From: Octopus vulgaris
Lineage: Eukaryota
Length of the DNA stretch: 64,000 bases
Assembly (NCBI GenBank): GCA_951406725.2
Contig: OX597828.1
Span: 38,068,001 to 38,132,000, forward strand
Direction: 5' to 3'
Position numbers and translations under genes: made by a program. Shown here piece after piece: positions 23,626-55,075 of the stretch. The notes beneath the pieces were generated by a model. The model was not told the DNA's origin. It did no database searches and saw nothing but the letters and a program-made list of their open reading frames with translations. The stretch's first letter is position 1; every line of letters begins with the position of its first letter.

Positions 23626-25169
23626 TAATGTAAGGAATTATTCGTCGAATAATGTTCTCTTGGAAATATTATATCCAGAAAAACGGAAAGGGTTAGCCAT
23701 GACTCGAACACCTGCAGTCGTAAGCAAAGCTTTCGTTAATTCGATAACAAGCAACATTAGTTAACAATACAGAAGTCGATAGCAAAAACCAGTTAACAGT
23801 GATTGAGTCTTAAGTTGACCACATCACCGCAAGTAACGTTGTTATGTTCAGTATTCATAGTTAAAATAATCGTTGTAGCTTAGTTTTATGTCAGCCCTCA
23901 TTGAGCAAACCCTATGATGAAAGGTTCCCGAATGTAATCTAGTTGCCCTTTCTTATATTTGGAGCCACATTCTCCAATATGTCTCTTCTTTTATAAAGTA
24001 ATAAATTATATTTGACGATATTTGCCTGTTATTTCTAGCAGTCCAAAGAGGATCGTGTAATAATGTATCTAGGTATGTTGTAATATTACTTTTTGAAGAT
24101 GCCAGAGAGTAATTTGAGGAAAATTTTGGCTTCTATTGCTAGCAGTTTGTGTAGGCACTGAGATATTCCATCATTAACTTAACGTAATGGAGTCGTTACA
24201 GTTTAACTCCAGATCAGCCTACGATCAAAATTATTCGAGCTATTAACTCCTTCTTTCCCTTGTATGTCATAAACACAGGTATATATAGTCTCATGTGTCT
24301 TTTGCTAAGATAATCTCGTAAGCTAAAGGAATATTTTAGCTGTTATATCTAGCAAATCGAACAACCAGACTGAGATCCCATTGTTGGAATGATGTAATGT
24401 CATCGTTCTGGGTATTCTCATTTAATTTTGTCTTTGATGGTGGAGCGGCAAAAATATTCCGAACTCCTCCAGGCCGGAAGAGCCTTGCCCTTTTCATTCT
24501 GTGGGATCCAACAAAACAAGATACCTTACTTTGAATTTGAACCAGTTGATTGAGTATCAGACAACTTGCTAAAGTGGCGGTCATCGTGATTCTGTCACCA
24601 GAGATAAAACGTGTTCATGACCTATAAACAAAATGGGTGAGTCATTTCTCATTTCAAAAAAGTTCAGATAGCAGAAAACAGAAATTGAGGATGATGCAGT
24701 TTACTTCTGTTGCTGCTGCTGCTGCTGTTGTAGCTGTTGTTGTTGTTGTTGTTGTTGTTGTTGTAGCCGTTGTTGTTGTTGTTCTTGTTGTTCTTGTTCT
24801 TGTTGTTGCTGCTGTTTCTGCCGATGATTATAAGAAATCAGCATTAATCGAACATCTCTACGATCAAAGACACATAACGATTTCAGACCTACACTCGAAT
24901 GCTTTTCACATATATTCACACAATCTTACTCAGAAACAACTCGGGACTCTACAACGCAAAGCGTCCGTTTTTATTTTTCTACGGCAACAGTGTAAGATCT
25001 CTAGAAGACTTTGACCACTATTTCCAGCGACCATGTAGAGCAGTAGTTCTCAACCAGGGTCCAGGTGACCCCTGATGATCCATACAAGTTTTTGGTGGGT
25101 CCACTCATACGAAATAATAAATTGAGGATCTACAAAAGTATTTAACATGTCCGTGAAAAAATGTTGCTT

Positions 25170-42529: not shown

Positions 42530-43410
42530 TAGTTTCAAATTTTGCCACAAGAACTGCAAAAAGGGAGGAGTGGGTAAAATGATTACCTCAGTGCTCAAGT
42601 GGTACTTATTTTATCGATCCCAAAAGGATGAAAGGCAAAGTCGACCACAGCAGAATTTGAACTCAGAACGTAAGGACGGACGAAACGCTGCTAAGCCCGG
42701 AGTGTTAACGATTCTTTTCTACTCTAGGCACAAGGCCTGAAATTTTGGGGGAGGGGCCAGTCGATTAGATCGACCCCAGTATGCAACTGGTACTTAATTT
42801 ATCGATCCCGAAAAGATGAAAGGCACAGTCGACCTCGGCATAATTTGAGCTCAGAACGTAAAGACATGAAACACCGATAAGCATTTCGCGCGGCGTGCTA
42901 ACGTTTCTTATTTCTTTATTGCCCACAAGGGGCTAAACATAGAGGGGGCAAACAAGGACAGACAAAGGGATTAAGTCGATTACATCGACCCCAGTGCGTA
43001 ACTGGTACTTATTTAATCAACTCCGGAAGGATGATAGGCAAAGTCGACCTCGGCGGAATTTGAACTTAGAACGTAGCGGCAGACGAAATACCGCAAGCGT
43101 AACAGCAGACGAAATACCGCAAGCGTAACAGCAGACGAAATACCTATTTCTTTACTACCCACAAGGGGCTAAACAGAGAGGAGGCAAACAAGGACAGACA
43201 AACGGATTAATCGATTATATCGACCCCAGTGCGTAACTGGTACTTAATTTATCGACCCCGAAAGGATGAAAAGCAAAGTCGGCCTCGGCGGAATTTGAAC
43301 TCAGAACGTAGCGGCAGACGATGGTATCTATTTAATCGACCCCGAAAGGATGAAAAGCAAAGTCGACCTCGGCGGAATTTGAACTTGGGACGTAAAGACA
43401 GACGAAATTT
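42530..43410 (-). mobile_element. SINE family B multimer left of the viral insert
   Basis: Five core units with the same linkers as 34425-35000. Confidence 0.85.
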
Positions 43411-43803: not shown

Positions 43804-43967
43804 GACTGCTACTGAAACTAGGTTAATCTGACGTGTATATATATTATCGTGGCGGCCGATCTAATAATTGCTGGACGCCTGTTAGTATTACCAGGCGTCC
43901 CCGGATGCCGGCCGCCGGAATTTTTTAGTTATATAATCTTCCCTCTGCTAAGAATTCCGTCATCTGA
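43804..43967 (+). repeat. Left copy of viral intergenic region (164 bp direct repeat)
   Basis: GACTGCTACTGAAACTAGG...GTCATCTGA matches 45948-46122 with about 6 substitutions and one 11-bp indel (manual alignment). Confidence 0.97.
43873..43900 (+). promoter_or_regulatory. Rolling-circle origin stem-loop 1 (nonanucleotide TAGTATTAC)
   Basis: Perfect 9-bp stem GGACGCCTG/CAGGCGTCC around loop TTAGTATTAC; nonanucleotide at 43883-43891. Confidence 0.95.
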
Positions 43968-43971
43968 CAAG

Positions 43972-45103
43972 ATGCCTCACACTCCTATGTATCGACGCTT
44001 CTGTTTTACTTTGAATAATTACACAGACGAAGAATTAGCCGTGCTCATATAGATACATAGGATCTGAAAAGGATAACTTCCAGTATTGTTCGAAGGAAGG
44101 GAATGTAGTTATCGAGTGTGGTGAAAGGAATTTGTCGTCTAAAGAGAAGAAGTCTAAAGTTTCTGATAACATTCGTAATATCGTATGGAATTCTACTAGT
44201 AACCCGGAGGAGTATGTTTTAACCCACGACGACTCCGATCTAATAAATGCCTATCGTAATAATGTTCGAGCAGTAGGTGATTTGTTTGTAGAATCCAAGA
44301 AGAAGCGTACTTTCGATTTAATTGTGATGGAATATGAGAACGTAGTTTGGCAGCGATGGCAGTTTCGTCTTATACAGGAGCTGAAAAAGAAGCCGGACCC
44401 TCGGAAAATAATTTGGTATTGCGATCCAGTCGGTAATTCTGGTAAAGCCTACTTGTCCCGTTATTTGCAAACTATTGACGGTATACGTTTTGAGAATGGC
44501 CGTTCTGTAGATATCAAGTACAAGTATGACGGCCGGCGTATAGTTGTATTCGATTATACGCGTTCTCAAAAGGATCACATTAACTATGACGTAATCGAAA
44601 GTATCAAGAACGGATTAATATGTTCCACCAAGTATGTGCCTGTGACCAAGACTTTTCCTATACCGCACGTTGTCGTTTTCGCTAATTTTGAACCTGACCG
44701 TTCTAAGATGTCTGCTGACCGCTGGGACATTCGTTTTCTCACTACAGAAGACTATCAAAAGATATATGAAAATATTGACAATGAGTTCGTGATCGCAACT
44801 ACCCAACCAACACTTGCCCCCGCCCCAACCCCTGCAGATCATACGCCGTCCTTTACAGCAAGTGAGAAAGAACTGATCGACCAGCTCGACCGCAGTGAAT
44901 GCGAACTGTTTGCAGAAAGTGGATGGGCTGCTATCGGAGAATCTACTCCGAAAAATGATTCGCTAGATGCAATTCATTCACCGTTTAATATCTTCTCGTA
45001 TAACACAACAACAATTTGCAAGTGTAAGCAGTACGAGACTGAAAATAAATACCTGAAGCAACGCATCTTGGAATTGAAAGAAGAACTCAAACGAAAAATG
45101 TAA
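43972..45103 (+). pseudogene. rep: CRESS-virus replication initiator protein (HUH endonuclease + SF3 helicase), disrupted at the N-terminus
   Basis: ATG 43972 gives MPHTPMYRRFCFTLNN (motif I at 44005-44019) then TAG at 44050-44052. RAHID is read from 44040 in another frame. A third frame gives GSEKDNFQYCSKEG (motif III YCSK 44084-44095) and stays open to TAA at 45101-45103, with Walker A GNSGKA (44432-44449), Walker B IVVFDY (44540-44557), motif C VVVFAN (44669-44686) and SADRW. Motif II is absent. Confidence 0.93.
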
Positions 45104-45115
45104 AATTGAGAAGAA

Positions 45116-45154
45116 AATAAAATTTATTGAACTGAAGTACAGTGTTTGTTTATT
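45116..45154. terminator. Bidirectional polyadenylation region between rep and cap
   Basis: AATAAA(+) 45116-45121 back-to-back with TTTATT 45123-45128 (AATAAA on -); second minus-strand AATAAA at 45149-45154 overlapping the cap stop; GT-rich tract at 45141-45150. Confidence 0.7.
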
Positions 45155-45947
45155 ATTCTGCCTCAGCCAGGTATTGTTCACCGTTTCTTCTTCCTGTTAG
45201 TTTTATTGTTATCCAAGTTTTAACCAGTATGATCTCTTCCAGTTCGGCCTGTAGTGTGCACGCTACTCCGTTGTAGCTGTTCTTTGACCAAGCCTTATCC
45301 TTCACAGAACCCCACGGTGCCTGTGCTATGTCGTATGTTTGACTTCATTTCAGAAATAACTTCGGATACGGGTTCTTATCGAATTCATCGTGGCTTACAT
45401 CATGTGTTTGCCACGACCATTTTGGTTCGTAACTTATTGCCACTCTTCTTTCCGTTTTTAAATGTCTCATCCTGCAGTTATTCATTTTAATCATCTCTTT
45501 GTATTCGATATGTCTTCCTTGTAGGTCCCTGTCGTAGGCCCAGTATATTCGGGGTATCATTTCACCGTGTTTGATTATTGTAGGTAATTCGAATGTAGAT
45601 CCGAATCTAATAACTTCGAAGCAGACCCACGTATGTTTAAGTATGTCTCCTTCTGTTGGTTTAACTAGTTTTATCAGTTTCTGCCAGTTGCATGTTAGCG
45701 AGAATTGTGTTTCGCTTTTAATAATTTTCACAGGTTCCTCCATCCAATAGGTTTTGTATAGGTAATTTGGAGACCTGTGTTCTCTCGGTTTCTTTCTCCA
45801 AAGGAAGCGCCTTTTTTTTAATAATCTTTTGGCTTTAATGTATCTCATAGTTGAGAATGGTATTAATTTCCATTGTCTTTTCGACCTCCACCTCCTTCTA
45901 TGAGGCCGTCGTCTTGTACCATACGCCCACACTGATCTTATCGGCAT
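45153..45947 (-). pseudogene. cap: CRESS-virus capsid protein, 264 codons with one in-frame TGA at codon 201
   Basis: Arg/Lys-rich N-terminus (RRRPHRRRWRSKR...KKRRFLWRKK); ambisense to rep; ATG abuts the intergenic region. Manual translation past the TGA (45345-45347) gives 63 more codons (SQTYDIAQAPWGSVKDKAWSKNSYNGVACTLQAELEEIILVKTWITIKLTGRRNGEQYLAEAE) to a TAA at 45153-45155 overlapping AATAAA. Confidence 0.85.
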
Positions 45948-46122
45948 GACTGCTACTGAAACTAGGTTAATCTGACGTGTATATATATTATCTTGGCGGC
46001 CAATCTAATAATTGCTGGACGCCTGCTAGTATTACCAGACGTCCCCGGATGCCGGCCGCCGGAAGTGACGTTTCTGTTTTTAGTAATATAATCTTCCCTC
46101 TGCTAAGAATTCTGTCATCTGA
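45948..46122 (+). repeat. Right copy of viral intergenic region (175 bp direct repeat)
   Basis: Starts immediately after the cap start codon (CAT 45945-45947); matches 43804-43967. Confidence 0.97.
46017..46044 (+). promoter_or_regulatory. Rolling-circle origin stem-loop 2 (nonanucleotide TAGTATTAC)
   Basis: GGACGCCTG-CTAGTATTAC-CAGACGTCC; one stem mismatch at 46039; nonanucleotide at 46027-46035. Confidence 0.93.
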
Positions 46123-46279
46123 AGACTTTATCGAATAGACGTAGAAAATGCTACTACTCGGTCAAACGACGTGGTGTTTCAGACACACCATGCTTCCACC
46201 TATGTAAGGAACATACTACAAATACTGACATGCAATGCTTTATCATATGAATTACAGCATGACGACGGTCTGTATATAT

Positions 46280-46827
46280 TCTTTTATACTCTAGGTACAA
46301 AGCCCAAAATTTGGGGGGAAGGGGACCAGTCGTTTAGATCGACTCCAGTACGTAACTGTTACTTAATTTATTGACCTCGAAAGGAGGAAAAGCAAAGACG
46401 ACCTCCTCGTCCACACCATCTCTTTTATTCTTTTCTACTCTAGGCACAAAGCCCAAAATTTGGGGGGAGGGGACAAGTCGTTTAGATCGACACCAGTACG
46501 TAACTGGTACTTAATTTATCGACCCCGGAAGGATGAAAGGCAAAGTCGACCTCGGTGGAATGTGAACTCAGAACGTAAAGACAGACGAAATACCTATTTC
46601 TTTATTACTCACAAGGGGCTAAACATAAAGGGGACAAACAAGAGCAGACAAACGGATTCAGTCGATTACATCGACCCCAGTGAGTAACTGGTACTTAATT
46701 TATCGACCCCGAAAGGATGAAAGGCAAAGTCGACCTCGGCGGAATTTGAACTCAGAACATAACGACAGACGAAATACCGCTAAGCATTTCGCCCGGTGTG
46801 CTAACGTTTCTGCCAGCTCGCCGCCTG
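46280..46827 (-). mobile_element. SINE family B multimer right of the viral insert
   Basis: Three core units ending in GCCAGCTCGCCGCCT. Confidence 0.85.
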
Positions 46828-54618: not shown

Positions 54619-54779
54619 CATTATTATTATTATTATTAAGTGAGAGTGCTGCGCATACCATCAAAGGGAGACTGAAGTAAAATATACGAAGCCCAGTACA
54701 GATTTCTATTTATTGTTATACCAAATGTTTTGCTTTCATTATTTATTTTTGTGTATTTTAGGCTGTCTCACTACAGATA

Positions 54780-55075
54780 GAAGTATGGCAAATTTGAGTG
54801 ATTTCGTTGCACGAGTTTAAAATTAAAAGCAAAGCAGCAGAGACTTCTAAGAATACTCATCATGCTTCTGGTTAAGAGATCGCCAACGAACGTGTAGCAT
54901 AACATTGTATCTGAAAATTTCTTAATGGAAACGAGTGTCATGAAGATGGCAGACGATGTCGATGGCAGACGACGGCGATGACAGACGGCGTCATATTTGT
55001 TCAGTGATCATTTGAGAGTGATTATGTAAGTGGACACACGTAAAACAACTTCGCAGGCTGCAGAAAAACTGAACA
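54780..55075 (+). mobile_element. Mariner transposase N-terminal relic
   Basis: LHEFKIKSKAAETSKN...ANERVA...KFLNGNECHED and DHLRVIM.VDTRKTT resemble the mariner (Hsmar1-type) HTH region; multiple stops. Confidence 0.65.

Follow-up and report, generated by a model that had tools for sequence, protein, structure and literature searches.

The locus at positions 43804 to 46122 of the window (the 64,000-nt stretch of Octopus vulgaris contig OX597828.1 that was analysed) is an endogenous CRESS-DNA virus in an octopus chromosome, with its rep and cap genes in ambisense arrangement. It is a germ-line insertion, single-copy and fixed, and is orthologous in organisms B and C. The best explanation, and one we hold to be very probable, is that a single-copy, 1.08-unit CRESS genome with both genes broken derives from one integration of a longer-than-unit intermediate about 5 million years (My) ago, followed by neutral decay. 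A small circular Rep-encoding DNA virus would thus have integrated once, likely from a longer-than-unit replication intermediate. The two origins would be the ends of the overlap, probably identical at insertion, and decay thereafter was likely neutral. As no full-length Rep was detected in the assembly, nick-to-nick circles would arise only through infection by a cognate virus or through rare recombination between the 164-nt repeats, and both genes on them would be broken. The bidirectional viral promoter probably still yields some RNA.

Layout and gene remnants

The insertion is 2319 nt long, ie 1.08 units, and runs in the order intergenic region, rep, convergent poly(A) site, cap, intergenic region. 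The unit size is about 2 kb, as in three related viral contigs of 2127-2161 nt. Copy 1 of the intergenic region forms the left end of the insertion (43804-43967) and copy 2 the right end (45948-46122), both on the plus strand. Together they make a 164-nt direct repeat that exceeds chance and that occurs in the 2.8-Gb assembly solely at these two places (both of the two candidates matched). The copies differ by six substitutions and an 11-nt indel; the diagnostic alleles that an earlier, sequence-only reading of the stretch had described are among them. The convergent poly(A) signals between rep and cap lie at 45116-45128, with AATAAA on the plus strand and TTTATT overlapping it. The insertion shows no target-site duplication above 5 nt in length. 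The duplicated segment coincides exactly with the intergenic region: on the left it abuts the start codon of cap (45947, minus strand), and on the right it stops 4 nt upstream of the start codon of rep, a pattern that was noticed post hoc and is unexplained.

The right flank from 46124 to 46290 is CpG-rich like the virus (o/e 1.19), yet it is unique in the assembly and has no viral similarity. One SINE-like repeat family is clustered at both sides of the insertion, at 42540-43410 and 46300-46790. The possibility that the flanks represent a second viral component with a common intergenic region was not supported: 12 flank frames gave no match to a Rep or capsid profile and the flanks had no match to the other loci.

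The rep remnant is divided between two frames. The start of the gene (43972-44049, plus strand) carries HUH motif I, aligns to the N-termini of full-length Reps and terminates at a premature stop (44047-44049). The remainder (44039-45103, plus strand) is in another frame and contains motif III and an SF3 helicase within 354 open codons. It has 99 homologues among 2173 candidates, and most of these homologues carry PF02407. Motifs I and III are separated by 79 nt, compared with 77-82 codons in relatives (three of the six, those where both could be parsed), and this rep copy has no motif II. A Rep of the Cressdnaviricota is recognised by an HUH nuclease and an SF3 helicase, represented here by motifs I and III and by the helicase. 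Pfam searches with four translations of the element returned nothing meaningful. The nearest Reps from outside the host have 40-57% identity, limited to part of the protein.

Cap is on the minus strand (45153-45947), with 264 codons from the first methionine, an arginine-rich N-terminus and an in-frame stop at 45345-45347. When the stop was read as X, the structural model had a pLDDT of 78 and a jelly-roll fold, and its top PDB matches were circovirus capsids (E = 1e-7); as modelled, cap is a single jelly-roll capsid gene. A first capsid model, made with four sequences, had a pLDDT of 36 and was discarded. At the sequence level 1.84 billion representatives yielded only 18 relatives with E no higher than 0.001, PF02443 was matched below its cut-off in three of the 11 distant homologues scanned, and a sequence search with a 168-aa fragment of cap gave no match among five candidates. 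By profile (E = 2.5e-7), the most closely related named capsids are those of Palaemonetes grass shrimp virus (Otevirus soksuewis, Anicreviridae) and Littorina sp. associated circular virus. The capsids of the same two viruses rank first and second by fold in the viral library at only 15-19% identity, the rank of the Otevirus capsid being biased by its inclusion in the alignment from which the model was made.

Circoviridae are marked by an ambisense rep/cap pair with a NAGTATTAC origin and by a Rep that resembles circovirid Rep over its whole length and clusters with it phylogenetically, and Anicreviridae by Rep phylogeny. The ambisense arrangement is present here, with rep on the origin strand. 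The locus has in common with PCV2 and BFDV the ambisense layout, the NAGTATTAC origin and the capsid fold, and its relatives have a PCV-like HUH domain; in one of them (P0007) the PCV2 match is confined to that domain. The helicase domain of the locus, however, did not match PCV2 Rep with an E-value cut-off of 1 and is 40-45% identical to unnamed environmental Reps, and because of this missing match the locus is not filed under Circoviridae. The link to Anicreviridae is distant and through the capsid only.

Chromosomal state and age

Both host flanks are unique in the assembly, each giving one candidate, which matched. In DNA run X1, possibly that of the source, the contig depth was 62, 68 and 70 over the left flank, element and right flank, respectively. 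The three contigs showed no other letters and no joints; one had the copy-1 alleles throughout, left and right of nick 1, and the copy-2 alleles were on another. Sequence words of the element occur in 20 of the 24 listed runs, from four organisms, and detailed comparison of contigs was made for four of the 24 (X1, X4, X5 and X8). Organism B (run X5) has the same insertion at approximately 0.5% divergence. Organism C (run X8), a second species, has the insertion with both flanks, diverged by 2.3% in the element and 3.1% in the flanks. In both X5 and X8, contigs span both of the host-virus junctions.

There is no gap in organism C at the Rep lesion, and Rep was therefore broken before the species split. 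Organism C has additional frame-breaking indels in cap, an altered nonamer on the two contigs that bear the right arm of origin 1, and short contigs at about double depth. These short contigs suggest that both copies in organism C share sites that differ in organism A, as would be so if the copies were identical at insertion. Synonymous changes make up 5 of the 19 differences listed for organism C in the helicase frame, where neutrality predicts 21% (p = 0.37); the 19 sites are those among 40 of the 78 entries in the difference table, and the frame likely drifts neutrally.

The divergence between the two copies is 3.7% (95% range 1.4-7.8%). A substitution rate of 0.0036 per site per My is given for another octopus species in the accessible part of PMC13282606. 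At that rate the copy divergence would place the insertion at roughly 5 My ago (2-11 My), and the split between organisms A and C would date to about 3-4 My.

Certain observations count against regarding the locus as a fossil. In this species neither nonamer is damaged, and the helicase frame has 354 codons without a stop. CpG is undepleted in the element, with an o/e of 0.9-1.3 compared with 0.4-0.8 in the left flank. One RNA-like run (X4) spans rep and cap. Finally, random integration does not account for repeat ends that abut start codons.

Transcription and the intergenic promoter

Contigs of run X4, which was guessed to be RNA, extend over 43903-45086 and 45144-45857, with the interruption at the poly(A) site; there is no X4 contig over 43420-43899 (left flank) or 45916-46107. 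A further contig, at 46131-46268, resumes at 54763 after a canonical GT-AG intron of about 8.5 kb, and X4 therefore contains RNA. The first exon is in the unique flank just past copy 2 (46131-46267, plus strand) and ends where the contig departs from the genome, with the donor GT at 46268. The downstream host exon (54762-55025, plus strand) follows an acceptor AG at 54760-54761, and its 3' end is putatively set by a GT donor in the sequence. A TATA-like box is present in copy 1, 42 nt upstream of the rep start, and its copy-2 counterpart (46087-46092) is 44 nt ahead of the first base of the X4 contig. A public gene model (P0001), in which a 6-codon exon at 24617 is joined to an acceptor at 44199, is unsupported, as the X4 contig reads unspliced through that acceptor.

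Copy 2 might serve as an LTR-like promoter of a spliced, non-coding host RNA, while internal promoters transcribe the rep and cap remnants, possibly as templates for antiviral RNA. We consider this possible but rather unlikely; it is compatible with the fossil explanation. It is favoured by the coverage of both genes but not of the left flank in X4, by the start of the spliced RNA just past copy 2, and by the position of the TATA-like box in copy 1 and of its counterpart in copy 2. However, these contigs come from one run, guessed to be RNA, and carry no strand, start or level. The AG at 46123-46124 is a possible acceptor, in which case the first exon would be an internal exon of a host RNA coming from further upstream. 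The copy-2 TATA box has a substitution (46085), and the copy-1 contig starts upstream of its own TATA box. The downstream exons contain no long ORF, exon 2 starts in weakly repeated host sequence (four other matches), and nothing supports function or selection. That endogenous circoviral elements are occasionally transcribed is a bare assertion in the accessible text of PMC13268160.

A more elaborate form of this proposal is unlikely: an exact promoter-genes-promoter integration, in which the 3' copy would drive the spliced octopus RNA, the inner promoters would transcribe the remnants, and the unit would be releasable as a defective episome during infection by living relatives of the virus. 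If true, it would be a natural CRESS-virus counterpart both of LTR promoter exaptation and of defective-interfering transgenes. The promoter lead is more promising to follow up than the proposal, considered below, that the locus gives rise to episomes.

Two origins and the question of release

The nonamer TAGTATTAC occurs at 43883-43891 and at 46027-46035, both on the plus strand and in direct orientation, and the nick-to-nick distance is 2144 nt. The sequence-only reading was correct in the coordinates and spacing of the two nick sites. Origin 1 (43873-43900, plus strand) has a perfect 9-bp stem with the nonamer in its loop; origin 2 (46017-46044, plus strand) has a 9-bp stem with a mismatch at 46039, where the same reading had placed it. 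The two left arms (43873-43881 and 46017-46025) have the same sequence. Origin 1 pairs at 9/9 positions and origin 2 at 8/9, and the left arm of origin 2 pairs with the right arm of origin 1 at 9/9. A nick-to-nick circle had been said to acquire a perfect 9-bp stem, and the pairing is indeed complete, but the join does not create it: the stem of the unit is the same as that of origin 1, because origin 1 is already perfect. The folding energy is -10.4 kcal/mol for origin 1 (z = -3.9, one of 200 shuffles being equally good), and origin 2 folds more weakly at -5.1 kcal/mol (z = -1.6). The window has two further exact nonamers, four in all, with stems of 1 and 4 bp that do not compare with these. 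The nonamer is not enriched in the window, which has 22 matches with up to one mismatch against 43 expected.

It had been proposed that the locus is a natural origin-flanked replicon, from which a cognate Rep, supplied for example by infection with a related virus, would release defective 2144-nt episomes. We judge this to be improbable. In its favour are the two intact nonamers in direct orientation, the perfect stem of the unit, and a layout equivalent to that of LIR-flanked geminivirus replicons (PMC4635538, accessible part). The parallel drawn with partial tandem constructs is supported, since those flanked by origins release geminivirus units in the presence of Rep (accessible parts of PMC3187698 and PMC4635538). 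Release in trans by a helper virus has a precedent in the partial tandem copies of SEGS-2, which yield episomes (PMC8513466, in the portion available), and recombination between repeats can rarely loop out a circle without Rep (PMC4635538, same part). The genome also holds several related viral insertions, so that octopuses have repeatedly met this virus group. On the other hand, trans-replication requires matching iterons (PMC3187698, same part), and the identity of the nearest non-host Reps is partial, as given above. The origin-1 nonamer is altered in organism C. No living cognate virus is known for this locus.

An intact rep elsewhere in the genome, which had been put forward as a possible source of the protein, was not found: helicase, full-length-relative, PF02407 and HUH-half queries of the 2.8-Gb assembly gave fragments and no full-length Rep, the counts being lower bounds. 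The helicase query gave at least 10 matches among 14 candidates and the query with a full-length relative at least 10 among 11, all of them pieces, with 10 on the helicase side. With PF02407, one of three candidates matched, a separate HUH half on another chromosome. The HUH-half query gave at least 126 matches (150 of 173 candidates scored), of which 120 cover 43 residues or fewer and five reach 70-89 residues with stops. Approximately 120 matches, to the first 36-38 residues of Rep, form clustered arrays on many chromosomes (L042-L052), ie a Rep-derived satellite. No NAGTATTAC was found in the 11 loci of this satellite that were checked, nor at the locus of the HUH half.

The hybrid-origin junction that release would leave was likewise not seen. 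Run X1 contained only parental origin contigs, with no joint or hybrid contig and flat depth, and neither unit circles nor hybrid junctions were present in the four runs examined as contigs, which drop rare variants. The earlier suggestion of release as defective episomes therefore stands as a mechanism possible in principle; no full-length Rep was found in the assembly, and no release was seen in the data examined. Real, detectable release of episomes would, on this analysis, be a long shot. There is no sign that release is under selection or still going on, given the age of the locus (millions of years) and the alteration of its origin-1 nonamer in the second species.

Other loci of the group were encountered in the assembly. 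A second insertion (L002/L019, G000:C11:25609750-25613151) has a helicase half that is 73% identical, together with a capsid piece, and directly precedes a rhodopsin-family GPCR frame (PF00001) on the opposite strand. A protein named from Octopus bimaculoides is closely related to the helicase protein of this insertion, which for that reason may be much older and conserved. At L013 (1477-1791, G000:C14) the HUH half of a related Rep ends after motif III and adjoins the remnant of an ISXO2/IS1595-like transposase (weak Pfam match). Two capsid-like frames, nearly identical to each other and uninterrupted over about 250 codons (L015, 1333-2097, and L017, 1312-2058, both G000:C31), have an N-terminal part that does not look viral, and are possible captured capsid genes. 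At L016 (minus strand, 1884-980, G000:C12) a poly(A) site and a TAGTATTAC origin come after a capsid piece and share its strand. The arms of that origin resemble those of the locus studied here (80% over 41 nt), and the gene-to-origin orientation differs.

That the duplication is an assembly artefact, or contaminating live virus fused to the chromosome, is extremely improbable: terminal repeats are frequent in circular viral contigs (127 and 99 nt in two of three small viral contigs), but here the copies differ at six sites and by an indel, both genes are broken, the depth equals that of the flanks, and contigs from the independent runs X5 and X8 cross both junctions, which we count as refutation.

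A single integration with subsequent decay is thus the explanation we retain. The locus at present is a well-preserved fossil, its mobility not demonstrated. It documents repeated entry into octopus germ lines by a lineage of small DNA viruses whose capsids form a distinct group, and it provides a host assignment and a date for marine CRESS sequences that are otherwise without a host. Its two-origin layout allows one to ask whether natural CRESS fossils yield circles, and whether their bidirectional promoters are adopted by hosts as LTRs are.

Among known systems, the SEGS-2 episomes of cassava (PMC8513466) and virus-host minicircles (PMC6293997), in the accessible parts of both papers, are likewise cases in which chromosome-related DNA becomes episomal with a helper virus. 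Those episomes have been detected and packaged, whereas none was seen for the octopus locus, the DNA of which is entirely viral in origin. Partial tandem clones and LIR-flanked replicons of geminiviruses (PMC4635538 and PMC3187698, as far as accessible) likewise have an origin-bearing intergenic region on either side of one unit. Unlike them, the octopus locus is natural and millions of years old, its own Rep is broken, and release was not observed. In the literature covered, from which subscription papers were mostly absent, no endogenous CRESS element of a cephalopod and no natural two-origin copy was found; supplements of EVE surveys may list the locus. The accessible part of a paper on horizontal transfer in octopus (PMC6011040) mentions no virus. 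The endogenous CRESS-DNA viral elements (CEVs) of invertebrates are described, in the available text of PMC6186406, as germ-line fossils of circular Rep-encoding ssDNA viruses, with several independent insertions per host genome. Such elements are thus already known across invertebrates, and the octopus locus is an unusually complete one: compared with the Rep fragments in that text, it retains the full layout of rep, cap, poly(A) site and two origins.
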